From: an uncultured delta proteobacterium
Lineage (GTDB): Bacteria > Myxococcota_A > Polyangia > Polyangiales > Polyangiaceae
Assembly: GCA_963782055.1 (NCBI GenBank)
Contig: CAWAIF010000003.1
Span: 320,001 to 384,000 of the forward strand
DNA: 64,000 nucleotides
Reading direction: 5' to 3'
The notes under the pieces are model-generated. The model was not told the DNA's origin. It searched no databases and saw nothing but the letters and a program-made list of their open reading frames with translations. Shown here in pieces: positions 33,119 through 55,377 of the stretch. How positions within the stretch are numbered: the stretch's first letter is position 1; each line of letters starts with the position of its first letter. The position numbers and the translations under genes were made by a program.

Positions 33119-34774
33119 TCACCCCTTCCGGCGGATCCCCCACAGCATCCACGCGCCGAGCACGAAGCTCGCCGCGCCCCCGATCCCCGCCAGCGCGGGC
33201 CAGAAGGGGAAGCCGAGGAGCCGGCCGTTCGCGGTCACGCCGTGGAGGAACATCGCACCAGCGATGCCCACCATGCCCAGCGCGCAGAGGCACGTCGCGA
33301 GGACCATGCCGGCGACGTCCCGGCGCGTGTCGGGATCGAGGCGCTGCTCGACGCGCGTGGTGAGCTTGCCCGCGTCCAGGCGGCCGAGCACGCGGTGCGC
33401 GAGGGGCGGGATGTCGATGAGCACGTCCTCCATCGCGACGAGGCGCAGGGCGACCTCCTGCGCGAGCTCTCTCGGGCTGAGCAGGCTCTTGCCCAGCTCC
33501 GGCGCGAACTCGCGGAAGACGACCGAGACGTCCAGGTCGGGCGACAGCGTGCGGATGGATCCCTCGAGGGTGCCGAAGGTCTTGTCCAGCAGCACCAGGT
33601 CCGGCTGGTAGTAGAGCTTCTCCTCCCGCAGGAAGTCGATGAGCGCCTCGCTCTGCTGCGCCAGCGAGGTGCTGCCGCCGCGCAGGGTGCGGAAGAGCTC
33701 GCGCAGGCGGCGCGAGAGGTGGAGCAGGTCGACGTCGTAGTCGACCACGCCGTGCTGCAGCAGCGCCCGCGCCAGGGCGTCGTAGTCGCGTCGCGCCATG
33801 GCGATGGCGATCGCCCGGAGCATCTGCATGGTCTGCCGGTCGAAGCGACCGACCATGCCGAAGTCGATGAGGGCGAGGCGCTGATCGCCCTGCACCAGGA
33901 GGTTGCCGGGGTGCGGGTCGGCGTGGAAGAGGCCGTCGTGGAAGACGGTGTGGAGCGTCACGCGCGAGATGAGCTCGGCGAGCTTCTTGCGGTCGTAGCC
34001 GCGGTCCTTGATGACGTCGATGTCGCTGACCTTCACCCCGTCGAAGTACTCCATGGTGAGCACGCGGCGCGCGGTGTGGTCCCAGTGCACCTCCGCGACG
34101 CTCACGCCGTCGAACGTCTCCAGGTTCTTGCGGAACTCCTCGGTCAGGTGCGCCTCGGTGGTGAAGTCAATCTCCCGCATGATGGAGCGGTCGAACTCCT
34201 GCACCAGCAGCACCGGGTCGGCCATCTCGGCGATGGAGGTGAGGCTGCGCGCCAGGCGGGCGAAGTCGTAGAGGATGGAGAGGTCGGCGCGGATGGTCGC
34301 CTCGATGCCCGGCCGCTGCACCTTCACGGCCACGCGGGTGCCGTCCTCGAGCGTGGCGCGGTGCACCTGGCCGATGCTCGCGGCCGCGAGCGCCTCCTCC
34401 TCGAAGTCGGCGAAGAGCTCGCCGAGCGGCTTGCCAAGCTCCTCCTCCACGGTCTTCTTGATCTCGGCGAAGGGCACGGGCGAGACGTGGTCCTGCAGCT
34501 TCTTCAGCTCGGCGATGTAGTCGCGCGGGATCATGTCCGGGCGCGTCGAGAGGATCTGTCCGAGCTTCACGAAGGTCGGTCCCAGGTCCTCCAGGTACGC
34601 GCGGATGCGCTCAGGCATCGTCATCGCGTGGCTCGCCTCGCTGGGTTTCGCGGCGTCCCCGCTGGGCAGCAGCCGGCTCAGCCCGACCTTGTCGAAGAAC
34701 CAGCCGAAGTCGTGCTTCGCGCCCAGCGCGACGATCTGCGCGTAGCGCTTGTACCGTGAGACCTCCTCGGACAT
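33119..34774 (-). CDS. ABC1/AarF/UbiB-family atypical kinase
   Basis: LGPTFVKLGQILSTRPD, AAASIGQVHRA, VAVKVQRPG, FHADPHPGN, IDFGM; C-terminal TM segments. Confidence 0.93.
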   Translation of the reverse strand: MSEEVSRYKRYAQIVALGAKHDFGWFFDKVGLSRLLPSGDAAKPSEASHAMTMPERIRAYLEDLGPTFVKLGQILSTRPDMIPRDYIAELKKLQDHVSPVPFAEIKKTVEEELGKPLGELFADFEEEALAAASIGQVHRATLEDGTRVAVKVQRPGIEATIRADLSILYDFARLARSLTSIAEMADPVLLVQEFDRSIMREIDFTTEAHLTEEFRKNLETFDGVSVAEVHWDHTARRVLTMEYFDGVKVSDIDVIKDRGYDRKKLAELISRVTLHTVFHDGLFHADPHPGNLLVQGDQRLALIDFGMVGRFDRQTMQMLRAIAIAMARRDYDALARALLQHGVVDYDVDLLHLSRRLRELFRTLRGGSTSLAQQSEALIDFLREEKLYYQPDLVLLDKTFGTLEGSIRTLSPDLDVSVVFREFAPELGKSLLSPRELAQEVALRLVAMEDVLIDIPPLAHRVLGRLDAGKLTTRVEQRLDPDTRRDVAGMVLATCLCALGMVGIAGAMFLHGVTANGRLLGFPFWPALAGIGGAASFVLGAWMLWGIRRKG

Positions 34775-34877
34775 GGGCTGAAGTTACAGGGGAATGGTCG
34801 AGCCCGCACCCCTTGCGCCCCTCGTCGGCTCCCATCGTTCGCCGACCCGCCGTCGCGGGCGGCCGGAGGATCTCTAC

Positions 34878-35162
34878 ATGTCGATGCAGTCTCAGCCGCA
34901 CCACCACGAGAGCCGCAGGGCCGTCCATCAGGGCGCCGTCCTGCTCGATGTCCGCACGCGCGCGGAGTTCCACGCCGGGCACCTGCCCGGCGCCGTCAAC
35001 ATCCCGGTCGACGAGCTCCACGGTCGCGCCCACGAGCTGCGCGCGCGCTCGGCGGCGGTGGTGGTGTACTGCCGGTCCGGGGGGCGCAGCGCGACGGCGG
35101 CGTCGGTGCTGCGCGGACACGGCTACACCGTGTTCGACCTGGGCGCGATGCACAACTGGTGA
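34878..35162 (+). CDS. Single-domain rhodanese-like sulfurtransferase
   Basis: GGAGGA RBS before ATG 34878; LLDVRT..EF..GHLPGAVNIP, VVYCRSGGRS. Confidence 0.9.
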   Translation: MSMQSQPHHHESRRAVHQGAVLLDVRTRAEFHAGHLPGAVNIPVDELHGRAHELRARSAAVVVYCRSGGRSATAASVLRGHGYTVFDLGAMHNW

Positions 35163-35230
35163 TTGGCGCCACGCGGCCCCCGCTGGCCGTCCGGATGGAA
35201 CCGCGATAGCCTCCTTGAATGGGAGGTCCG

Positions 35231-35512
35231 ATGAAGCGCCGCAAGCGATTTGCATTCGTCCCGCGGTCGGTGATCGGGGCGAGCTTCGGCGCGGTGGTGC
35301 CCGCGATCGCGCTCTGGGGCCTGGAGGCCTGCTCGAGCAGCGGGCCGGTCATCGGCGTGGCAGGGGTCGCCTACTGCTGCTTCGAGGCCGGCGTGGCGGC
35401 CGACGCGTTCGGCGGCGACGCCTCCGATGGCGGCGACGCGCAGGGCGACGCCCAGGCTGCCGACGCCCAGGACGCGGCGGACGCACCCGGCGACGCGCCA
35501 GGGGACGGATGA
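35231..35512 (+). CDS. 93-aa lipoprotein-like peptide, candidate precursor A1
   Basis: GGAGGT RBS; basic N-terminus, hydrophobic stretch, LEAC; core GVAGVAYCCFEAGVAADAF; acidic Asp/Ala/Gly tail. Confidence 0.8.
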   Translation: MKRRKRFAFVPRSVIGASFGAVVPAIALWGLEACSSSGPVIGVAGVAYCCFEAGVAADAFGGDASDGGDAQGDAQAADAQDAADAPGDAPGDG

Positions 35513-35793
35513 AGAGGCCGACGCGCGCCAAGCGCCCCCGCGTGGTCCCCGGCCTGGTGCTCAGCGCCGGGTTCCTCGGCGTCGTCCCTGCCTGCGCGAT
35601 GGTCGCCTGCGGCGGGACGGAGGTCTCCACCAAGGACGGGGGCACCGACGCCGCGCCCGACCAGTTCCTCGGCGTGGGCGCGGTGGCGTACTGCTGCTTC
35701 GACGCCAGCGTCGCCGTGGTCGGCTTCGACGCCGAGGCCGACGCCGCTGACGCCAGCGACGGCGAGCCGGGCGACGCCGCCGACGGAGGCTGA
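35509..35793 (+). CDS. 94-aa lipoprotein-like peptide, candidate precursor A2 (paralog of A1)
   Basis: ATGA overlap with A1; hidden at the 3' end of track ORF 34756..35793. MKRPTRAKRPRVVPGLVLSAGFLGVVPACAMVAC...GVGAVAYCCFDASVAVVGF, acidic tail. Confidence 0.8.
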   Translation: MKRPTRAKRPRVVPGLVLSAGFLGVVPACAMVACGGTEVSTKDGGTDAAPDQFLGVGAVAYCCFDASVAVVGFDAEADAADASDGEPGDAADGG

Positions 35794-35799
35794 GCGGGC

Positions 35800-36633
35800 G
35801 TGCGGATCCGGCGCGTGCTCACCAACACGCCGCTCGCGCGCGTGCACGAGCGCACCATCCTGCAGCGCGGCCCGCGCAAAGGGACCGCGGTACCGTGGGC
35901 GTCCTTCCGCCGCGAGCGCTACCCCGCTCCGGCGCTCGCCCTGTCATACGACGCGCAGCGCATGCTCGCGCTCGGCGAGTACTCCGCGGTCAGCCTCTTC
36001 GCCCGCTTCGTCGACGGTCTGACGCGCGCCGCCGCACCGTTCGACCTCGTCTCCGCCGCGGCGCGCGTGCCGAGCGACGAGATCCGCCACGCCGACCTCG
36101 CCTTTCGCTTCGCCGCGCTGTGCGCCGGCCGGGAGGTGTCGGTGGAGGCGGGCAAGCAGCACATGACCTCGCGCTTCGACGGCGCCATGAGCCTCGACGA
36201 GCTCGACGACTTCGCCGTCGAGGTCATCGCCGTCGGCGAGACGCTCGCGTGCGCGCTGCTCTCCGCGTGCCTGGAGGGCGCGAAGGATCCCGTGGCCCAC
36301 GCGGTCTACTCCAACATCGTCGCCGACGAGGTGCACCACGCCCGCCTCGGCTGGTACTACCTTCTCTGGCGCGCCCCGCAGTGGACGGGGGCGGAGCGCC
36401 AGCGCGTCGCCGACCACGCCGGGGGGATCGTCGCGCAGGTGGAGACGCGCTTCGCCACGGGGCGCGACGCGCCGCGCGGGGCGCAGAAGGCGGCCCGCAG
36501 CCTCGGCGTGCTGGACACCGCGCGCCAGCGCAAGGTCGTCGCCGGCGTGATGGCGCGCGAGATCGTGCCGGGGCTGGACGGCCTGGGCCTTGGCGCCTCG
36601 CACGCGTGGCGGGTCCGGAAGCGCATCGCGTGA
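35800..36633 (+). CDS. Ferritin-like di-iron carboxylate protein
   Basis: Two E...ExxH ligand sets: LGEYSA...SDEIRHA and VGETLA...ADEVHHA. Confidence 0.82.
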   Translation: MRIRRVLTNTPLARVHERTILQRGPRKGTAVPWASFRRERYPAPALALSYDAQRMLALGEYSAVSLFARFVDGLTRAAAPFDLVSAAARVPSDEIRHADLAFRFAALCAGREVSVEAGKQHMTSRFDGAMSLDELDDFAVEVIAVGETLACALLSACLEGAKDPVAHAVYSNIVADEVHHARLGWYYLLWRAPQWTGAERQRVADHAGGIVAQVETRFATGRDAPRGAQKAARSLGVLDTARQRKVVAGVMAREIVPGLDGLGLGASHAWRVRKRIA

Positions 36634-38033
36634 CGTCGGTGCGAGCCGCACGCCCGGTGGTGATCGGCGCCTCGCTGGTGTGTCTCGGCCGCCCCCTCCG
36701 GCCGCGTGAGCGCGAGAGGCTCCGCGCGTACCTGCGGCGTGCGCTGGCGTGGCAGCGCCGCCTACGCGGATTCCCCGCCCCCATGAGCGTCGCGCCCGAC
36801 GCCACCCCCTACGTCTCCATCTACGCGAGCGGCGCGCTTCGCGGTTGCTACGGCACGCAGGAGGGCGCTGCGGGCGAGCGGGTGGCGCGGGCGGTGCTGC
36901 TCGCCCTCCACGACAGACGCTACGGCGGCATCGCGCCGGCCGAGCGGGCGCACCTGGACGCCGAGATCGCGTACGTCACCGGGGCGCGACCCGCCCGCGC
37001 CGACGAGGCGGAGGCGAGGCTCGAGCCGGGCGTGCAGGGCGTCGCGCTCGCGGAGGGCGGCGCCGCGACGCTTCTGCTGCCGTCGGTCGCCAGGGAGCAC
37101 GGACACGACGCGCGCGCCACGCTCGACCTGCTCGCGCGCAAGGCCGGATACGAAGGTGGGCTCGGCGGCGAGGGTCTGGTCTGGATCGTCGACGTGGAGG
37201 CGGTGTCGACCCACGGCGCCGTCGCGCGGGATGCGAGGGTCGCGGCGCGGCGGTGGCTGGAGTCGCTCGTCGCCGTCGATGGCGCCCTCGCCTTCGAGCG
37301 CGTGCCCGGCTCCGGCGCGCGCGTCGCGAGCGGTCTCATGCGGCACGGGCGGATCGCCGTCGCGGTGGAGGCGCTCGCCGCGCTGCGCTCGCCGAAGGCG
37401 GGGCGCGCACGGGACTGGCTGGCGCGAGAGATCGCGCGCGGGCTGCGCCGTCCTTCGGACGTGCTCGGCTGGCCGGAGCGCGCCGACATGACGCTGGGCA
37501 CGCTCGCCCTCGCCGCGCGCGCCGGTGTGGCGGTGCCGCTGGCGGAGGCGGCGGCCGCTGCCGACCCGGCCACGGTGTCGCCGTGGCACGCCGCGCAGGT
37601 CGCGGCCACGCTGGGGACCAAGACCCCGACCGCCCTGTGGGAGCGCTGCGTCGCCGACCTGGAGGCCCGGCCCTTCGCGCCGTACCTGACGATGGCCGCG
37701 CGGCGGCGGGGGGACGCGCGTGTGCTCGAGCGCACGGCCGGAGCGCTTGAGGCGGCGCTGTCCGCCGAGGCCCCCTTCGCCGGCGGCGCCCACGTCACGC
37801 CCGTCCCCGAGACGGCGCTGACTGCCGTCGCCGTGGAGGCGCTCGCCGGTCTGCCCACGCGCGAGGCGCGGCGGGCCGTCGTCCGGGGTCGCGCCTTCCT
37901 CGCCGCGCGGCAGGTGCTCGACGTGCCCGCCGCGATGCACCCGAGCGCGCTCGGCGCCTTCCGCGCCTCCCCCGTCGCCCCGATCCTGCGCTGTGACGTC
38001 ACCGCGCACGCCGCGCTCGCGTGCTTCGGCTAG
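36630..38033 (+). CDS. AMMECR1-domain + alpha/alpha-barrel fusion protein (copy 1)
   Basis: GTGA overlap. YVSIYASGALRGCYG, DRRY, LEPGVQGV, LLLPSVA..., LARKAG match AMMECR1; helical C-terminal half ends FLAARQ...GAFRASP...LRCDVTAH. Confidence 0.8.
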   Translation: MTSVRAARPVVIGASLVCLGRPLRPRERERLRAYLRRALAWQRRLRGFPAPMSVAPDATPYVSIYASGALRGCYGTQEGAAGERVARAVLLALHDRRYGGIAPAERAHLDAEIAYVTGARPARADEAEARLEPGVQGVALAEGGAATLLLPSVAREHGHDARATLDLLARKAGYEGGLGGEGLVWIVDVEAVSTHGAVARDARVAARRWLESLVAVDGALAFERVPGSGARVASGLMRHGRIAVAVEALAALRSPKAGRARDWLAREIARGLRRPSDVLGWPERADMTLGTLALAARAGVAVPLAEAAAAADPATVSPWHAAQVAATLGTKTPTALWERCVADLEARPFAPYLTMAARRRGDARVLERTAGALEAALSAEAPFAGGAHVTPVPETALTAVAVEALAGLPTREARRAVVRGRAFLAARQVLDVPAAMHPSALGAFRASPVAPILRCDVTAHAALACFG

Positions 38034-38072
38034 CCGGCGAACCGGTTGGGCCGCTCGTCGGCTCCCACAGGC

Positions 38073-38906
38073 ATGTGCGAGCTGCTGGCCATGTCGGCGC
38101 GGTTCCCGACGACGCTGCGTCTCTCGCTCGACGAGCTGGCGCGGCACGGCGGCGGGACCGGCCCGCACGCGGACGGCTGGGGCATCGCGGCGATCCAGGA
38201 CGGCGACGCCTTCGTCATCCGCGAGCCGGAGGCCGCCCACGGCAGCGCCTGGGTGCGCCTCTTCGAGGAGCGGGAGGTGCGCTGCGCCTCCGCCATCGCC
38301 CACGTCCGCAAGGCGACGCAGGGCGCGCGCGCGCTGCGCAACACGCAACCCTTCGCGCGGGAGCTGGGCGGCAGCATGCACGTCTTCGCCCACAACGGGA
38401 TGCTCTCCGGCATCGAGACGGACCCGCGCTTCGTCTCCCGGCGCTTCCGGCGCGTCGGGGAGACGGACTCGGAGCACGCGTTCTGCGCGCTGCTCGAGCG
38501 CCTCGCCCCGCTCTGGGAGGAGGGCACGCCCTCGGTCGACGCGCGCGTGCACGTGATGACCTCCTTCGCCGCGGACCTGCGGGCGCTCGGCCCGGCGAAC
38601 TTCCTGTACTCCGACGGCGAGCTGCTCGTGGCGCACGGCCACAAGCGGCACCACCCCGACGGCCAGATCCGCGCGCCTGGGCTGCACATCCTCCGGCGAA
38701 GGTGCACCTGCGTCGAGGACGCGGTGCCCCGCGGCGCCGGGGTGAATGGCGGCGAGGACGCCGGGCGCGACGCGCTCCAGTCGGTCGCGCTGATCGCGAG
38801 CGTCCCGCTCAGCGCCGAGCCGTGGGAGCCGCTCGGCGAGGGCGACGTGGTGGTCCTCCGCGGGGGGAGCCCGATTCTGCGCGTGCCGGCCCGCGCCGCC
38901 GCGTGA
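38073..38906 (+). CDS. Class II glutamine amidotransferase-like Ntn-hydrolase (YafJ/EgtC-type)
   Basis: Met-Cys start MCELLAM; HADGWG, IAHVRKAT, NTQPF, FAHNG, GETDSE. Confidence 0.92.
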   Translation: MCELLAMSARFPTTLRLSLDELARHGGGTGPHADGWGIAAIQDGDAFVIREPEAAHGSAWVRLFEEREVRCASAIAHVRKATQGARALRNTQPFARELGGSMHVFAHNGMLSGIETDPRFVSRRFRRVGETDSEHAFCALLERLAPLWEEGTPSVDARVHVMTSFAADLRALGPANFLYSDGELLVAHGHKRHHPDGQIRAPGLHILRRRCTCVEDAVPRGAGVNGGEDAGRDALQSVALIASVPLSAEPWEPLGEGDVVVLRGGSPILRVPARAAA

Positions 38907-38966: not shown

Positions 38967-39947
38967 ATGAAGCAGGCGCAGGGCGCCATGGCGCTGGACG
39001 TCGCCTTCGTCGGCGTCGTCAACCGCCTCTTCGAGGCGCTCGCGTCCGGCGACCAGACGGCGCCCGCGCTCGCGGAGCGGGCGAAGGTGGACGCCGGCTA
39101 CGTGGAGCGCTGGTGTCAGGCGGCGTACGCCTTCGGCTACCTGGAAGCACACGAGGGCCGCTTCGGCCTCTCCGAGCCGGGCCGCGCCTTCCTGCCCGAC
39201 GCGCCGGGGTCGCTGATGCCCTTCGCGGTCGGCGCGGTGCTGGGCGCGCACATGGCGGAGCGCGCCGCCGGGCTGATGCGAACCGGCGAGCGCCCAGGGG
39301 AGAGCGTGCTCGCCGAGCGGGAGACCATCCTCCCGTGGTTCGGCCCGATGCTGGAGTCCACCTTCGGCGCTCTCTTCGAGCGAGAGGTCCTGCCGAACGT
39401 GCCGGCGTTCGGCGAGCTGGACGCGCGCGGCGGCGTCGCGGTCGATCTCGGCTGCGGTAACGGCTGGTACCTGCGCAAGCTGGCGAAGCGCTTCCCGCAC
39501 GTGCGCGGCGTCGGCCTGGACGGCTTCGAGGAGAACGTCCGCCAGGCGAGCGAGCGCGCCCGCGCGGAGGGGCTCGGCGATCGCCTGCGCTTCGTCGCGG
39601 GGGACATCTACCACTACACCGTCGGCGAGCCGGCGGACCTCATCGCGATGAACCGCGCCCTGCACCACGTGTGGGATCAGAAGGAGCGCGTCTTCGGCAT
39701 CCTGCGCGACACCCTGCGCCCTGGCGGCGTGGCGGTCATCTGGGAGCCGGCGTGGCCCGCCGACCTCACCGCGCTGCGCGATCCTCGCCGCCGGGCGATG
39801 GCCTTCCAGAACCTGAACGAGCACGTGCAGGGCAACCACTTCCTGCGCCCGGACGAGATCGAGGCGGCCTTCCGCGCCGTCGGCATGCAGGCCTCCACCC
39901 ACCTCTTCGTCGAGGGCACCGAGGCGGTCGTGGTGGCGCGCCGCTGA
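38967..39947 (+). CDS. Class I SAM-dependent methyltransferase with N-terminal wHTH
   Basis: VDLGCGNG, YVERWCQAAY. The true start is probably ATG 38933 with a 1-nt frameshift (see findings). Confidence 0.88.
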   Translation: MKQAQGAMALDVAFVGVVNRLFEALASGDQTAPALAERAKVDAGYVERWCQAAYAFGYLEAHEGRFGLSEPGRAFLPDAPGSLMPFAVGAVLGAHMAERAAGLMRTGERPGESVLAERETILPWFGPMLESTFGALFEREVLPNVPAFGELDARGGVAVDLGCGNGWYLRKLAKRFPHVRGVGLDGFEENVRQASERARAEGLGDRLRFVAGDIYHYTVGEPADLIAMNRALHHVWDQKERVFGILRDTLRPGGVAVIWEPAWPADLTALRDPRRRAMAFQNLNEHVQGNHFLRPDEIEAAFRAVGMQASTHLFVEGTEAVVVARR

Positions 39948-49774: not shown

Positions 49775-50617
49775 ATGAACCTGCACCATCACCCCACGGG
49801 CGCCGCGCTGCTGGAGCGCGCAGGCGACTTCCTCCGCCGGCGCGAGACGGTGCACGCCCTGCTGCTCACCCTCGCCGCGCGGGCGCCGGAGCCGGGAGCG
49901 GCGCCGTACTACCTCGCCACCGTGGAGGATGACGCGGGCGTCGCGCTGGTGGCGCTGCGGACGCCGCCGCACGGGGTGGTGCTGAGCGCGCTGCGGGAGG
50001 GCGCGCCGGACGCCGCGATCGACCTCGTCGTGGAGGACCTCGCGCGCCGCGGCGGCGGGCTGCCCGGCGCCTTCGGTCCGCTGGAGGTGGCCGTGGAGCT
50101 CTCGCGGCGCTGGGAGGCGGCGACCGGCGCACGCGCCCGCGTGCGGCTGCGGATGAGCGTCCTCGAGCTGGACCGCGTCATCGCGCCCGCGTGGCCGCCG
50201 GGGGAGCTGCGCCTCGCGACGGAGCGCGACCTCGACCTCCTGGTGCCGTGGAGCAACGCCTTCATCGACGAGTGCGGGCTGCCGGAGGAGGACCGCCGGA
50301 TGGCGACGCGCGCGGCGATCACGCGGCGGATCGGCAACGGCCTGTTCCGCGTCTGGTCGGTGGACGGCGTGGCGGTGACCATGGCGGTGGGGGGCTCCGG
50401 CTCGCCCGCGCGCGTCGGCTCGGTCTACACGCCGCCGGCGCTGCGACGGCGCGGCTACGCGTCGGCGTGCGTGGCGAAGCTGAGCCAGGAGCTGCTCGAC
50501 CGCGGCGCGGGCAAGGTGGTGCTGAGCGCCGACGCGGCGAACCCCACGTCGAACGAGATCTACGCGGCGATCGGCTTCCGGAAGGTGGGGGACGAGGCGA
50601 TGATCGCGTTCGGGTAG
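49775..50617 (+). CDS. GNAT-family acetyltransferase
   Basis: VYTPPALRRRGYAS, NPTSNEIYAAIGF. Confidence 0.9.
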   Translation: MNLHHHPTGAALLERAGDFLRRRETVHALLLTLAARAPEPGAAPYYLATVEDDAGVALVALRTPPHGVVLSALREGAPDAAIDLVVEDLARRGGGLPGAFGPLEVAVELSRRWEAATGARARVRLRMSVLELDRVIAPAWPPGELRLATERDLDLLVPWSNAFIDECGLPEEDRRMATRAAITRRIGNGLFRVWSVDGVAVTMAVGGSGSPARVGSVYTPPALRRRGYASACVAKLSQELLDRGAGKVVLSADAANPTSNEIYAAIGFRKVGDEAMIAFG

Positions 50618-50673: not shown

Positions 50674-52593
50674 ATGCCTCGATGGACGGACGCGCCGATG
50701 TCGCTCGCGTGGCGAACGCGATGGGTCGAAGGCATGCGCGCGCGCTTCGCGGACGAACCCGCGCTCGACCGGACGCTCTCGTGGATCCGGACGATCGCGC
50801 TGGAGGACGACGCGTTCGTCCTGGCGACGGCGAGGGGCCGCGGCGTGTTCGGGTTTCCGTTCCCGTCTCGGCCCGGGCAGCGTCCGGAGCGCCTGGCGCT
50901 CGGCGAGGAGGACGCGCGCGTGCGGTTCGTCGTGCGCGCGGGGGAGGCGGCGCGCGGAGGGCGCGCGGGCGGAGACGCAGCGCCCGGGTGGAGACCGATC
51001 CTGCGCTTCGATGCGCTCTCGGTCTCCGAGCGCGACGCGCCCCACGGAGGCCCGCGCCCGCTGCGGCTCGGCCTGACGGGCGCCGAAGGATGGGCGCTGC
51101 TGCAGGCGGCGCGGGCGGCGGCCGAGGACGTGGTCGCCGGCGGCCCGCCGCCGAGAGAGACGGAGACTCGCGGCGCCGAGCCGCGCCTGTCGCAGCGGAC
51201 GGTGCTCGCGGTCTCGATGTGGACGCGCGGGCGACTGCGCGGGTCGGTCGTGTCCCCGCCCGGGCGTGCGCTCGTGATGGCGCGTCGATCCGGCGAGTGG
51301 GCATGCCAGGACCCGCGCTTCGAACGCCCCACCCTCGCCGAGCTGGACGACACCGTCTTCCAGGTCGGGCTGGTTCATGCGCCGGCCATCCCCCTCTCGC
51401 GCGACGAGATCCGCGAGCGGGACGCCTATCCCGACAAGGCGCTCTTCGTGTCGGAGGGAGCGCGCTTCGGAGCGTACATGCCGGAGGTCTTCAACATCCG
51501 CGCCCCGCGCAAGCTCGCGCCGCTGCTCCGCTCGCTCGCCATAGAGAAAGCCGGGCTCGAGGGGGTCGGCGCCCACACCCGGATCGAGGCGTGTGAGGTC
51601 AGCGAGGTGGTCGAGTCGGCGGACCGCACACGGGCGGTGGCGCTCGACGGCCCGATCGCGCGCGTCGCGGTGGACGAACCGGAGGGCCTGGCAGGCGCGG
51701 CGCGCGCCGCGGGCAGCGCGGCGTGCGCGTGGCTCGTGAGCGTGCAGCAGGAGGACGGCTCGTGGCCGGTGCGGGTGCGACCGGCGACCGGCGAGGGCGA
51801 GGGGCGCGATCCGGTGCGCGTCGCGCTCGTCGCGTTCGCCCTCGCCACCTTCGGCGTCGCCGCGCGGGTCGACGCGGCGCCCCGGGCTGCGAGCCGGGCG
51901 CTCGCCTGGCTCGCGCGCACTCGATCGGAGTGGACCCGCGATCCGGTGCGGGCGCTATGGACGCACTGCTACGTGGGACGGACCGCGACGTGCCTCGATG
52001 AAGCGGATGCGTTCGCGTCGGCCGCGGCGGGCGTACGGGAGGTCGCTCACGCCGCGGCTCGCGATCGGCTGGCCGCGCAGCACGCGGCGTCCTTCTCCCG
52101 CGAAGCCGCGGCGCGAGACGCGGACGCCGCGCGTCGCGCCGGGTCGCTCGGGGGCGCCCTCTACGAGGAGTTTCGCCGCGCGCGGGATGGTGGAAGCCCG
52201 ATGTCGCTCGCCGGGTGGGCGGAGCTCGCGGCAGCCTTCTCGAGCGATTCCCCGCAGGCGCGCGAGATCACCGGTTGGCTGCGCTCCTACCAGCTCCCGG
52301 ACGGCTCCTTCCCCGACACGACGGCGTCGCGATTCGCCTACACGCGTGGTACCGGCAAGGTCTTCGAGGTGCTCGCACGAACGTGCTCCGACGCCGAGCC
52401 CGCGCTCGAGCGTTCACTCGGGTGGCTCCGGACGATGCAGTACCGCCTCGACTCGGTCTTCTTCGTCCCGGAGGAGCACCGCGCGCGCGTGCTCGGCGGC
52501 CTGCGCCACGACGTCTACGACACCGCCGCGTGGGTCGACGCCGCGGGACATCTGCTGATCGGGCTCGCACCCATCGTGCGGAGGCCGTCGTGA
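50674..52593 (+). CDS. AMMECR1-domain + prenyltransferase/squalene-cyclase-like alpha/alpha-barrel fusion protein (copy 2)
   Basis: ATG 50674 or 50698. LLQAARAA...VSMWTRGRLRGS...DPRF...EL...YMPEVF...EKAG match AMMECR1; QW-like repeats WLVSVQQEDGSW, WLRSYQLPDGSF, WLRTMQ; end GGLRHD...WVDAAGH. Confidence 0.8.
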   Translation: MPRWTDAPMSLAWRTRWVEGMRARFADEPALDRTLSWIRTIALEDDAFVLATARGRGVFGFPFPSRPGQRPERLALGEEDARVRFVVRAGEAARGGRAGGDAAPGWRPILRFDALSVSERDAPHGGPRPLRLGLTGAEGWALLQAARAAAEDVVAGGPPPRETETRGAEPRLSQRTVLAVSMWTRGRLRGSVVSPPGRALVMARRSGEWACQDPRFERPTLAELDDTVFQVGLVHAPAIPLSRDEIRERDAYPDKALFVSEGARFGAYMPEVFNIRAPRKLAPLLRSLAIEKAGLEGVGAHTRIEACEVSEVVESADRTRAVALDGPIARVAVDEPEGLAGAARAAGSAACAWLVSVQQEDGSWPVRVRPATGEGEGRDPVRVALVAFALATFGVAARVDAAPRAASRALAWLARTRSEWTRDPVRALWTHCYVGRTATCLDEADAFASAAAGVREVAHAAARDRLAAQHAASFSREAAARDADAARRAGSLGGALYEEFRRARDGGSPMSLAGWAELAAAFSSDSPQAREITGWLRSYQLPDGSFPDTTASRFAYTRGTGKVFEVLARTCSDAEPALERSLGWLRTMQYRLDSVFFVPEEHRARVLGGLRHDVYDTAAWVDAAGHLLIGLAPIVRRPS

Positions 52594-54113
52594 CCGCCGC
52601 CTTCGTCGAGCGCGTGGAGTCCGGGCCGGGACGCCGGGACGTGCCTCTGCCGGTGCGCGAGACGTACTCGCTCTCCGAGCTCTTGCCGAGACGCGCCCCG
52701 GGGGTCGGCTATCGCGTCCCGGGAGAGATGGGGCCCCCGCTGGCGCGCGCGTTCGAGCGGGCGTTCGCGCTCCTCGAGCGCGGCTACGGCCCGCTGTCGG
52801 TGCGCGCCCCGTCCAGGCTGCTCACGCCCCGCTGGTACCGGGTCGTCCGCGCGCTGGCGCGGCACGGGCTCGCCCGGACGCTGACGCTCTCGCTCCCGCA
52901 CGAGCGCGGCATCCCCCTGTACTACTTCGACATCGCCGCGGGGCCCTGCTGGCACGCGACCGACGGCGGGCAGCCCGAGCGCACGCGCTACGGCCGCGGG
53001 GTCTCCGACGACTACGATCACGCGCTGGCCAAGGGCGTGGGCGAGTGCCTCGAGCGCGGCTCCCTGCTCTACTTCCGGATGGCGGACATGATCCGCGGCA
53101 GCGCGCGGTCGCTGCGCGCGCGCGGGCTCCCCTTCGTCGACCCTCGCGCGCTGTCGGTCTTCTCACGGGAGCAGATCGACCGGCGGCCGGCGCTCGCGGT
53201 AGACGACGGCTCGGTGTTCCAGTGGGTGCCGTGCAGGTCGCTCGTGTCGTCGCAGGAGGCGCTCGTGCCGGCGCAGCTCGTGCACTGGAACTACCCGGTC
53301 GGCTGGGGGGACGCTCCGGAGCCCATGCTGCGCGAGCAGAACTCCCACGGCGCGGCCGCGTTCTACTCGCTGGACGGTGCGCTCCTGTCCGGCCTCCTCG
53401 AGTGCCTCCAGCGCGACGGCTTCTTCCGCCACTGGCTCCGCGGGATCGCGCCGCCGCGCATCGCGACCGGCGACGTCACGCGCCCGGCCACCGTGCGCCT
53501 GCTGCAGAGCGCCCGCGACGTCGGGCTGGAGCCGATCTTGCTCGACATCACCTCGCAGCTCGGCGTCCCGACGTGCGTGTGCGTGCTCGCGCGCGACGAC
53601 GGCGAGTCGCCGGCGGTGACGGTGGGCGCGAGCTGTCGGCTCGACGCGGAGAGGGCGATCCACGACGCGCTCCTCGAGGCGGCGAGCGTGCACCACGTCG
53701 TCGCGCAGAGCCCGGAGCGCCTTCGCGCGGCGGCCGGCCGCGATCCGCTCGTGGACGCGTCCTTCGACACCGACCACCGCCTGGCCTTCTGGGCGAACCC
53801 GGAGCACGCGCGCCACCTCGCGTGGCTGCTGGGCGGGGCGACGGAGTCGCTGTCGGACTTCCGTCGCGGGTGGCGTGCGCCCGAGAGCTCGCGCGAGGGG
53901 CTCGAGCGGGTCGTCGAGGTCCTCCGTCGCCATCGCATCGCCGCGTGGTTCCACGAGGTCCGCCACGCCGCGCTCGACGAGCTCGGCTTCGCGGCCGCGC
54001 GCGTGATCGTCCCCGACCTGCTCCCCATGTACTGCGTGGACCGGAACGCGCCGCTCGGTCAGGCGCGCGCGGAGGGCGCCGCGCAGCCACCGTGGCCGCA
54101 CCCCTTTCCGTGA
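52590..54113 (+). CDS. YcaO-family protein
   Basis: GTGA overlap. GECLER, LVPAQLV, NSHGAAA...LLECLQRD, LDITSQLGVP, ALLEA, RVIVPDLLP, C-terminal PWPHPFP. Confidence 0.92.
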   Translation: MTAAFVERVESGPGRRDVPLPVRETYSLSELLPRRAPGVGYRVPGEMGPPLARAFERAFALLERGYGPLSVRAPSRLLTPRWYRVVRALARHGLARTLTLSLPHERGIPLYYFDIAAGPCWHATDGGQPERTRYGRGVSDDYDHALAKGVGECLERGSLLYFRMADMIRGSARSLRARGLPFVDPRALSVFSREQIDRRPALAVDDGSVFQWVPCRSLVSSQEALVPAQLVHWNYPVGWGDAPEPMLREQNSHGAAAFYSLDGALLSGLLECLQRDGFFRHWLRGIAPPRIATGDVTRPATVRLLQSARDVGLEPILLDITSQLGVPTCVCVLARDDGESPAVTVGASCRLDAERAIHDALLEAASVHHVVAQSPERLRAAAGRDPLVDASFDTDHRLAFWANPEHARHLAWLLGGATESLSDFRRGWRAPESSREGLERVVEVLRRHRIAAWFHEVRHAALDELGFAAARVIVPDLLPMYCVDRNAPLGQARAEGAAQPPWPHPFP

Positions 54114-54474: not shown

Positions 54475-55377
54475 CTACGGCGTGCTGCAGAAGAGGGGGG
54501 CGACCGAGAGGAACATGCTCTCGAAGTCCGGACCCGCGAAGCACGCGGCGTAGGTCTGCGCGTCGGGGTCGCACTGCCCGTCCTCGTAGTTCTTGCATCC
54601 GCCGGCCATGGCCGCCTGCTCGCATTGCAAGCGATCGTAGTTGTCATGGTCGAAGCAGCTCTCGCACGCGTAGCTCACGCAGTCCTGCGCGGCCTGGTAT
54701 CGGTATGCGCAGCTCCCCGGCGGCGCGGGGTTCTCGCCGGAGAGGAGCTCCATGCAGCCCGCGATGTTCGCCTCGGCAATGCCTTGGTCGAAGACGAGCG
54801 GTCCCCATGCGGGGTCGGTCTTCTTGGAGTCGAGGCACTGCGCGCACGGTGCGTTTGTCCCACCGTCGGCGTCGGATAGCCACGCCGCGCACTCCTGGGC
54901 CGTGGAGCTCGTGTCGAGGCACGCCGCGAAGAAGCCCTGAAGCTGCTGCGCCGTGCACGCGTCCTGTGGCGCGCGCGCCGGCTTCGGGTCGCGCGGCGCG
55001 AAGCCGGAGGGGTCTGGCCAGACGCCCGCCCAGCTTCCGGGCGGGCAGACGTAAGCATGCGATGCAGAGTCGCAGACGGGCGAGACGGTATCGTCCACGC
55101 TGCTGCCAGTGCAGCAGGTGGGAATCGCCGAGGCGTCGGTGGGATCGCAGGGGCACTGCGTGACCGGGAACGCGCCGCCGGGGCAGCCCCAGCCGCTCGC
55201 GGTGCACACCGCGGCGACCTGCTTGCCCGGTTCACACGCCGACACGCAGCTGGCCGGCACGCCCGGGCACGAGAGCGCGCTCGTCTCGATGCCCGCGTCG
55301 GCGGGGCCCTGCTGCGCCGTGCCACACGCAGCAGCGGCGGCGCAGAGGACCCAGACCCACCTCGGCGAGATGCTCAC
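54475..55377 (-). CDS. Cys-rich lipoprotein
   Basis: Lipobox AAAC; more than 20 Cys. Confidence 0.78.
   Translation of the reverse strand: MSISPRWVWVLCAAAAACGTAQQGPADAGIETSALSCPGVPASCVSACEPGKQVAAVCTASGWGCPGGAFPVTQCPCDPTDASAIPTCCTGSSVDDTVSPVCDSASHAYVCPPGSWAGVWPDPSGFAPRDPKPARAPQDACTAQQLQGFFAACLDTSSTAQECAAWLSDADGGTNAPCAQCLDSKKTDPAWGPLVFDQGIAEANIAGCMELLSGENPAPPGSCAYRYQAAQDCVSYACESCFDHDNYDRLQCEQAAMAGGCKNYEDGQCDPDAQTYAACFAGPDFESMFLSVAPLFCSTP

Follow-up and report, generated by a model that had tools for sequence, protein, structure and literature searches.

A recurrent four-gene cassette of candidate lipoprotein peptides, a ferritin-like di-iron protein and an AMMECR1-toroid fusion in Polyangiales

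The cassette and its recurrence among relatives

The window analysed in this work is a 64,000-nucleotide stretch of the genome of an uncultured member of the Polyangiaceae (assembly GCA_963782055.1, contig CAWAIF010000003.1, positions 320,001 to 384,000; G000:C3:320001-384000 in our numbering), a genome of 7.58 Mb in three contigs, and its G+C content is about 73%. At 35231-38033 on the forward strand it carries four translationally coupled genes in the order A1, A2, FER and AMM, which encode two short paralogous peptides, a ferritin-like di-iron protein and a fusion of an AMMECR1 domain to an alpha/alpha toroid (Table 1). The tight coupling of these genes had been noted in a first-pass annotation made from the sequence, and every detail of it is correct: A1 and A2 overlap by ATGA (35509-35512), six nucleotides separate the A2 stop codon from the GTG start of FER, and FER and AMM overlap by GTGA (36630-36633). 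The start of A1 was placed at ATG 35231, and not at ATG 35219 further upstream, because of the position of the GGGAGG sequence, and the equivalent methionine is the first residue in the A1 orthologs too. The G+C content at third codon positions (0.89 in A1, 0.96 in A2, 0.96 in FER and 0.93 in AMM) resembles that of the flanking genes.

Table 1. Positions of the cassette features and of neighbouring genes, counted from the first nucleotide of the window
Feature	Positions	Strand	Basis or remark
Shine-Dalgarno-like GGGAGG	35221..35226	+	4 nt 5' of the A1 ATG; read from the sequence
A1, 93-aa precursor-like predicted lipoprotein peptide (signal/leader, core, Asp-rich tail)	35231..35512	+	Translation
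A1 leader / lipoprotein-type signal peptide, residues 1-34, putative lipobox Cys34 at its end	35231..35332	+	Leader alignment, pattern
A1 core region V43-F60 (overlapping VAGVAY, VAYCCF, VAADAF)	35357..35410	+	Motif count
A2, 94-aa A1 paralog, precursor-like predicted lipoprotein peptide	35509..35793	+	Translation
A2 core region G57-F73 (VAYCCF, VAVVGF)	35677..35727	+	Motif count
FER, 277-aa ferritin-like di-iron carboxylate protein, GTG start, no signal peptide	35800..36633	+	Translation, model, alignment
AMM, 467-aa AMMECR1-toroid fusion, GTG start	36630..38033	+	Translation, model
AMMECR1 domain of AMM, residues ~45-195	36762..37214	+	Pfam, PDB profile, Foldseek
Alpha/alpha-toroid domain of AMM, residues ~200-467	37228..38030	+	Foldseek
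ABC1/UbiB-type kinase (-) and rhodanese (+)	33119..35162	-, +	5' of A1
Class II glutamine amidotransferase	38073..38906	+	GATase_4, E 1e-57; starts 39 nt past AMM
S-adenosylmethionine-dependent methyltransferase	38967..39947	+	Next after the amidotransferase gene
GNAT gene	49775..50617		5' of the AMMECR1-like-toroid/YcaO pair
639-aa AMMECR1-like-toroid protein	50674..52590	+	Profile comparison
YcaO gene	52590..54113	+	PF02624, E 1e-51
300-aa Cys-rich protein, lipoprotein-type N-terminus	54475..55377	-	No Pfam match

The cassette was compared across 38 distinct loci of FER orthologs with FER identities of 44-87%; the subsets that cover this sampling are the window itself, three genomes from a phylum search, three further contigs of metagenome-assembled genomes, 25 loci anchored on AMM and five FER loci unlinked from AMM. 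The gene order of the window recurs in these relatives. A peptide gene with the leader and the lipobox pattern lies immediately 5' of FER in 36 of the 38 loci; on the main contig of the organism itself, an upstream ORF (open reading frame) that fits this crude pattern is present for only 156 of 3866 long ORFs (4%). The five FER loci that were fetched apart from AMM (L112-L116) retain the peptide, and they include those of two genomes (G524 and G401) in which AMM lies on another contig and FER is still accompanied by its peptide or peptides. FER stands immediately 5' of AMM in 26 of 28 AMM loci, the other two having FER on a separate contig. No neighbour beyond the cassette is conserved in the 35 loci compared, the other clusters found there being antisense ORFs over FER and AMM, and the same comparison of loci gave no conserved protease, transporter or amino-acyl-tRNA-dependent ligase gene.

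The co-distribution of the components was counted in one sample of 401 Polyangiales genomes, with thresholds of E<=1e-45 for FER orthologs, E<=1e-10 for AMM and E<=1e-4 for a model of the leader (A4, built from 30 N-termini of related loci). FER orthologs are present in 30 genomes and AMM in 28, all of them among the 30; the leader model matches in 30 genomes, 29 of which carry FER, and in the remaining FER genome the leader is found in the right place at E 0.005. Nine more genomes have leader matches at E of about 1e-3 to 1e-2, which we took as noise. The peptides do not, on these counts, occur independently of the enzymes, nor are the enzymes devoid of conserved neighbouring peptides, either of which would have spoken against the proposal of the first-pass annotation that the peptides and the enzymes belong together. 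The exception is a genome (G709, 94% complete) in which no FER ortholog was found: there the peptide ORF (L117 at ~2470, G709:C20) ends soon after the lipobox and has no FER within 7 kb, and it may be a decaying remnant. In another locus, counted among the 36 (L092, 2703-3128 oriented, G414:C4), an in-frame stop interrupts the FER-linked peptide gene between the signal and its FSVxAP repeats; the gene could be a pseudogene or be split in two, or the stop could be an error of sequencing. Within genera the cassette is distributed patchily (e.g. in 2 of 17 or 4 of 14 genomes). The precursor genes are duplicated in tandem, and orphan leader peptides found elsewhere in FER-bearing genomes have the core type of the FER-linked peptide of that genome. 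Orthologs of the A1 type were found in five related genomes and those of the A2 type likewise in five.

In three runs of soil metatranscriptomes we found one exact contig each (151 or 188 nt, depth ~2) within A1 or FER, and no cover over the remaining cassette; the exact 151-nt piece of A1 (35269-35419) from one soil RNA library offers no more than a weak hint. These matches do not establish transcription, because such libraries may contain DNA. The scan of 34700-38400 for promoters and terminators gave no sites and is uninformative at 73% G+C.

Peptides, di-iron protein and toroid partner

The N-termini of both A1 and A2 consist of a basic stretch and a hydrophobic segment with A/G-Cys-G/S at its end, features that the first-pass annotation had overlooked. 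The leader elements common to both peptides are the basic stretch, [FI]VP, V[VI]P and the lipobox Cys. In the alignment of 30 leaders P11, P24 and C34 are invariant, V10 and V22 are kept in at least 90%, and all 30 have A or G immediately before the Cys and one of G, S, A or T immediately behind it; the leader of A2 matches the model at E 4.4e-11. Judged by this pattern, A1 and A2 are predicted to be lipoprotein precursors with a signal peptide and a lipobox Cys. The conservation inside the signal ([FI]VP ... V[VI]P) appears unusual for a mere export signal. Export by the Tat pathway, the consensus of which contains a twin arginine (RR), is not supported as a general feature, as RR stands before the first VP motif in only 18 of 30 leaders.

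The leader is conserved, and the remainder of the peptide diverges fast yet retains a short motif. Downstream of the lipobox there are Gly/Ser/Asp-rich linkers and short hydrophobic motifs with the consensus V/L-A-x3-F/Y, usually in tandem (up to nine in one peptide), often with one or two hydrophobic residues before and G, D or E after; examples are VAYCCF, VAYPAY, VAAGGF, VADSGF, LAIGAF, LAVAGF, LAQQGF and VANMAF. In order to judge the motif against chance, we counted [VLI]A...[FY] in 43 peptides encoded upstream of FER and in 500 composition-preserving shuffles of each: at least one match is present in 35 of the 43 and at least two in 32, and in 31 peptides the observed number was reached by no more than 5 of 500 shuffles. 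A1 has three matches (0.08 expected; none of the 500 shuffles equalled the count) and A2 has two (0.09 expected; equalled by one shuffle in 500). The shared core is thus more than a chance resemblance, as the recurring gene order also indicates. Both window peptides contain VAYCCF. The conserved element is not the YCCF core named in the first-pass annotation but the wider form V/L-A-x3-F/Y; the Cys-Cys pair, to which that annotation had given weight, is restricted to the window and to five relatives close to it. Pfam and NCBIfam gave no family for the window peptides or those associated with the FER paralogs described below, and a search of the proteins of the same genome with A1 returned only A2 (E 0.0014) and chance-level low-complexity matches.

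FER (P0003) has no match above threshold among Pfam and NCBIfam models, the best being DUF455 at E 0.12. Its AlphaFold model (predicted local distance difference test, pLDDT, 90) is that of a ferritin-like four-helix bundle, the top Foldseek matches in the PDB being PaaA/PaaC, aldehyde-deformylating oxygenase (ADO), VlmB and soluble methane monooxygenase (sMMO) with TM-scores of 0.5-0.58. The two E...ExxH ligand sets that had been read from the sequence are E60 with E94-x-x-H97 and E147 with E177-x-x-H180, and all six ligands are invariant in 34 homologs. FER looks catalytically competent, because the six predicted ligands are invariant and the fold of the model is that of di-iron oxygenases. 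It shares this fold and both ligand sets with the oxygenases of the AurF, PaaA/PaaC, ADO, VlmB and sMMO type; it differs from them in falling below the threshold of curated models (e.g. Pfam AurF, PF11583), and the substrates of the known members are small molecules, not ribosomal peptides. A profile search of solved structures gave nothing meaningful for FER (best match a de novo helix bundle, E 0.0012). In the ESM Atlas the nearest clusters are unnamed Myxococcota proteins, followed by the AurF, rubrerythrin, ADO and PaaA sets, which is a lead at the level of the fold. The protein has no signal peptide: its GTG is the first start after an in-frame stop, which leaves no room for an N-terminal extension, and the longest hydrophobic run within residues 1-45 is of two residues.

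The AMM protein (P0004) contains the AMMECR1 domain and the helical barrel that the first reading had assigned to it. Residues 58-176 match Pfam AMMECR1 (PF01871) at E 1e-17 and 64.6 bits against a cut-off of 25, with the motif LRGCYG, and the domain is matched by 1zq7, 1wsc and 1vaj in the PDB profile search and by 1zq7 and 1vaj in Foldseek. G72, C73, D95 and R97 are invariant in 41 homologs; these are the residues of the RGChG and DxRa signatures of AMMECR1 as given in the available part of the work of Balaji and Aravind (PMC2034487). Of the AMM homologs, 163 were found, and PF01871 is present in 119 of the 120 listed. The C-terminal half of the AMM model (pLDDT 96) folds as an alpha/alpha toroid that had no match in Pfam; its Foldseek matches are class II terpene cyclases (8pak, 8paj, 5bp8, MstE) and six-hairpin glycosidases, and its ESM Atlas scores are all below 0.9 and give fold-level leads only. 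Over residues ~200-467 the toroid has the fold of class II terpene and squalene-hopene cyclases, but it lacks their catalytic DxDD motif, which is absent from AMM and present in only 2 of 41 family members, and unlike them it is fused to AMMECR1 or to FER.

Such fusions to FER were found in a search for longer FER homologs, which returned 45 proteins, about 40 of them of 570-620 residues with the full FER domain. In the two fusion proteins checked (P0260 and P0245) the toroid lies C-terminal to FER, and a further longer homolog (P0285) carries an AMMECR1 segment. The fusions therefore argue for a physical FER-toroid complex in which AMMECR1 would be an optional addition. The first-pass annotation had taken the AMMECR1 fusion as the partner, and this needs to be divided: the constant partner of FER is the toroid domain, and AMMECR1 is missing in some lineages. 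Prediction of a complex of FER, AMM and A1 with alignments scored 0.53, compared with 0.41 when AMM was replaced and 0.00 when the partner was replaced, and gives no verdict either way.

The FER family extends far beyond the cassette. A profile of the FER orthologs matched 6371 cluster representatives (clustered at 50% identity) with E<=1e-3, of which 1309 reach E<=1e-10 and 38 reach E<=1e-30. In a phylum-level sample matches at E<=1e-5 came from 159 of 401 genomes, many of which had several. One distant paralog (L042) passes the Pfam AurF model with 35.1 bits against a threshold of 29.6. Distant paralogs with 27-33% identity have a lipobox peptide directly 5' in 11 of 25 loci, a twelfth being ambiguous, and they keep this peptide but not the toroid. 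The motifs of the paralog-linked peptides are of other kinds, namely Cys-rich domains with a PGPF-type end and repeats such as PCxGxPCG...PPD, GNLLPPDTDV and PGNPKGSxYD. In the genome of the window two of five FER paralogs have a small lipobox peptide directly 5'.

Those two own-genome paralogs lie outside the window (G000:C3:3362095-3362856 on the reverse strand and C3:6019353-6019922 on the forward strand), and one of the peptides linked to them has repeats of the NLVAPPQD / NLLPPPMD type. At another locus (L045, 3771-5318 of G299:C127) five tandem small genes lie directly 5' of a distant FER paralog of 28% identity, and each of the five peptides begins with a conserved signal of the RKRALRAAKAV type, has a lipobox and ends with a Cys-rich domain whose last part is a PGPF(V/I)AP-type motif. 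Peptides of this type are also found in L043, L046, L031 and L032, and they matched no Pfam or NCBIfam family.

A putative route to modified lipid-anchored peptides

Two features by which clusters of peptides that are made ribosomally and modified post-translationally (RiPPs) are recognised, a precursor gene beside enzyme genes and a conserved leader with a variable core, are both found in the cassette. The layout on which the first-pass annotation had based its proposal of a RiPP-like operon is therefore borne out, but the classical case of a small peptide that is cut from its leader does not fit, and the nearest equivalent appears to be a hybrid of a RiPP and a lipoprotein, with a signal peptide and a lipobox Cys. 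We consider it probable, with confidence that is no more than moderate, that the cassette is a RiPP-lipoprotein system resembling the DAG-RiPPs with a different set of enzymes, and that it makes modified, lipid-anchored peptides.

The route would be as follows. A1 and A2 would be the ribosomal precursors, and their lipoprotein-type signal would probably double as the recognition leader; the repeated cores (VAYCCF together with VAADAF or VAVVGF), behind which comes an Asp-rich tail, would be the sites of modification. FER would act in the cytoplasm, before export by Sec, and would use O2 to oxidise a position inside each core by hydroxylation, desaturation or cross-linking. Our best guess for the site, made with low confidence, is the aromatic ring (F/Y) or the V-A pair, because the fold neighbours of FER act on aromatic rings or aliphatic chains. 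FER would work in complex with the toroid of AMM as a substrate-binding or second catalytic partner, and where a lineage has the AMMECR1 domain, with its invariant Cys, this domain may contribute an additional step. The product would then leave by general Sec export, be lipidated at Cys34, lose its signal to signal peptidase II and stay anchored to the membrane, so that the general lipoprotein pathway would supply both processing and export.

DAG-RiPPs provide the closest comparison. As described in the accessible part of PMC13056109, their lipobox precursors are modified in the cytoplasm by MNIO iron enzymes without signal peptides, together with partner proteins, and are then triacylated; some precursors have repeated cores (EGKCG three times in NedA), and both processing and export can be provided by the lipoprotein pathway. 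The set we compared comprised lipidated bufferins, oxazolins and chryseobasin-like peptides, as far as they are covered in the accessible parts of PMC13056109, PMC11626156 and PMC11252979. On this basis the cassette shares with DAG-RiPPs a lipoprotein signal with a lipobox Cys on the precursor (here recognised by pattern only, from a basic n-region and a hydrophobic h-region), an iron enzyme without a signal peptide (FER, which would likewise act before export), a partner protein beside the iron enzyme, short cores that may repeat and no need of a dedicated protease or exporter. In the same comparison it differs in the iron enzyme, FER being a ferritin-like four-helix-bundle di-iron protein and theirs a TIM-barrel MNIO (DUF692) protein; in the partner, an alpha/alpha toroid with or without AMMECR1 as opposed to one of the DUF2063/MbnC type; and in the cores, which here are hydrophobic V/L-A-x3-F/Y motifs without a conserved Cys, preceded by a strongly conserved signal region. 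Neither FER nor AMM has an MNIO match in Pfam or NCBIfam, and the genome mining reported in the consulted part of PMC13056109 was applied to MNIO neighbourhoods.

This combination of enzymes had not been recognised as a described class in the first-pass annotation, and we found no paper on it in the literature searched. None was found that connects precursors of this kind with AMMECR1 or with ferritin-like enzymes, in a search that did not cover the supplements and the Mendeley dataset of PMC13056109; none dealt with both AMMECR1 and ferritin-like proteins, the papers on AMMECR1 and RiPPs were unrelated, and AmmeMemoRadiSam was mentioned only in passing in the portions of text available. Nothing was found on a RiPP, di-iron or ferritin-like system with a lipoprotein signal in Myxococcota (searched as Myxococc).

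Several points weigh against reading the cassette in this way. The role of the peptides as substrates, the order of events, the lipidation and the chemistry are what we infer from the layout and context of the genes, and so is the assignment to RiPPs as such; the lipobox was recognised by pattern and by eye, not by a trained predictor. The core has no universal residue with an obviously reactive side chain, and [VLI]A...[FY] is missing from 8 of the 43 peptides, which have variant repeats instead (FSVAxPxD, VAAxY, PVVAAM, DVSAHFD, IFAGDVS), some of them without an aromatic residue; an ordinary lipoprotein could use such hydrophobic motifs, set between linkers rich in Gly, for structure or adhesion. 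AMM is not next to FER in 6 of the 38 loci, and AMMECR1 is absent in L109-L111. Two loci with FER and the toroid, L110 (2155-3318) and L111 (in G556:C5 and G624:C808), have no peptide: they are second FER copies followed by a toroid without AMMECR1, and a FAD_binding_3/geranylgeranyl-reductase-like gene stands 5' of FER in place of the peptide. The pair of enzymes can therefore exist free of the peptide and may take non-peptide substrates. The counts given above overstate independence, because the genomes compared are kin. The neighbourhood of a YcaO gene and a second AMMECR1-like-toroid gene in the window (described in the last section) is a single case, as the pair was found in none of 190 other genomes of the family and in none of 190 other genomes of the order.

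The main rival is a pathway for a hydrophobic small molecule, for instance an isoprenoid or a lipid, on which FER and the toroid/AMMECR1 protein would act, the lipoprotein serving as a carrier, receptor, scaffold or export aid at the membrane and not as the substrate. One would argue for it from the nearest solved folds of the toroid, which are class II terpene cyclases, from the fold neighbours of FER (PaaA, ADO, VlmB), which act on small hydrophobic or aromatic substrates, and from the peptide-free L110 and L111 with their reductase-like neighbour; the hydrophobic repeats could bind lipid. However, the DxDD motif is lacking in nearly the whole family, and around the 35 loci no genes of an isoprenoid or small-molecule pathway are conserved, only FER and AMM recurring. 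A small-molecule pathway would also leave unexplained why the leader is conserved, why the tandem cores evolve fast, why precursor genes stand in tandem and why the orphans share the core type of their genome, and the distant FER paralogs have retained the lipobox peptide and not the toroid. We therefore hold this explanation to be unlikely, while giving it more weight than the two that follow.

The peptides could alternatively be ordinary structural or adhesive surface lipoproteins, FER and AMM being co-transcribed with them for another reason such as iron or oxidative-stress handling or regulation. Ferritin-like folds also serve metal storage and peroxide detoxification, the rubrerythrin family gives a weak score for one paralog, Gly-rich repeats and Asp-rich tails are common among exported proteins of low complexity, and the cassette includes no conserved gene for a protease or a transporter. 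This last point loses force if the lipoprotein pathway itself supplies processing and export, as the consulted part of PMC13056109 indicates for DAG-RiPPs. Synteny, coupling and co-distribution are moreover near-perfect across the whole range of FER identities, the fold neighbours of FER are oxygenases and not storage ferritins, the FER-toroid fusions point to an enzyme complex, and conservation is far stronger in the leader than in the mature part, so that we find ordinary surface lipoproteins quite improbable. A catalytic scaffold of the 3-thiaglutamate or pearlin type would have a small molecule built on the cores or cut from them and released, the signal only placing the scaffold; ribosomal peptides that serve as scaffolds with iron enzymes have precedent, to judge from the part of the preprint available (bioRxiv 10.1101/338681), and many identical tandem cores would raise the yield. 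In contrast, the cassette has neither a conserved amino-acyl-tRNA-dependent ligase nor a conserved protease, and a scaffold that works in the cytoplasm would be hampered by a lipobox, which makes a scaffold the least probable of these explanations, with very little to be expected of it.

Modification of lipid-anchored peptides is thus the account we prefer, and it may be taken further. It is conceivable, although we would put this forward only tentatively, that the cassette belongs as one branch to a large superfamily, so far undescribed and mostly of Myxococcota, in which ferritin-like di-iron oxygenases modify repeated cores on lipobox precursors to give lipid-anchored peptides displayed on the surface or on vesicles, and that in this branch AMMECR1 acts on the peptide. 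If true, AMMECR1 would for the first time be placed in a concrete biochemical context; the family is conserved from archaea to humans and we know of no reaction for it, and the human AMMECR1 gene maps to Xq22-23. Should the peptides be substrates, the RiPP-lipoprotein principle would reach beyond MNIO enzymes to a structurally unrelated family of iron enzymes, and ferritin-like di-iron oxygenases would be added to the enzymes known to modify ribosomal peptides. One would then expect many modified peptides with a lipid anchor that are still to be explored, the FER family being greatly expanded in predatory soil myxobacteria, and AMMECR1 would gain a tractable test system made up of a peptide, an iron enzyme and an AMMECR1-toroid protein.

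Flanking genes and other AMMECR1-type genes

The four genes that flank the cassette encode an ABC1 kinase, a rhodanese, a class II glutamine amidotransferase and a methyltransferase (Table 1). None of them was found beside the cassette in the relatives checked, and for this reason the amidotransferase and methyltransferase genes, which follow AMM closely, probably do not belong to it. The prokaryotic AmmeMemoRadiSam system (AMMECR1, Memo and radical SAM; TIGR04335 and its partners) shares with AMM the RGChG/DxRa signatures and a partner enzyme of the O2/iron type. AMM differs from it in reaching only 58.5 bits with TIGR04335 against a cut-off of 99, in its fusion to the toroid, in its coupling to a ferritin-like protein and in having no Memo adjoining, the Memo matches of the genome being at C3:4226817 and C3:5267589, outside the window. 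A radical SAM activase-like gene is not among the four flanking genes, and no genome-wide search was made for it.

The genome contains three AMMECR1-type genes in three different contexts. One besides AMM belongs to a canonical pair of adjacent Memo (160.7 bits) and AMMECR1 (130.2 bits) genes at G000:C3:4226817-4228134, about 3.87 Mb from the cassette. The other lies in the window and encodes the 639-aa protein, in which an AMMECR1-like segment with Ser in place of the Cys of the motif is joined to a squalene-hopene-cyclase-like toroid. Its AMMECR1 and toroid matches in Pfam are both just under threshold, its six-frame AMMECR1 match scores 25.2 bits, and hhalign aligns it with the AMM family over 381 columns (92.8% probability, E 4e-7). 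A YcaO gene is coupled to it by a GTGA overlap. YcaO proteins are classic peptide-modifying enzymes, so that this pair fits a role of AMMECR1-toroid proteins as partners of such enzymes, and it may be a second unusual peptide-modifying pair; a scan of metagenomes for the pair gave one irrelevant weak match. A GNAT gene lies 5' of the pair, and the gene for the Cys-rich protein with a lipoprotein-type N-terminus is convergent on the YcaO gene.

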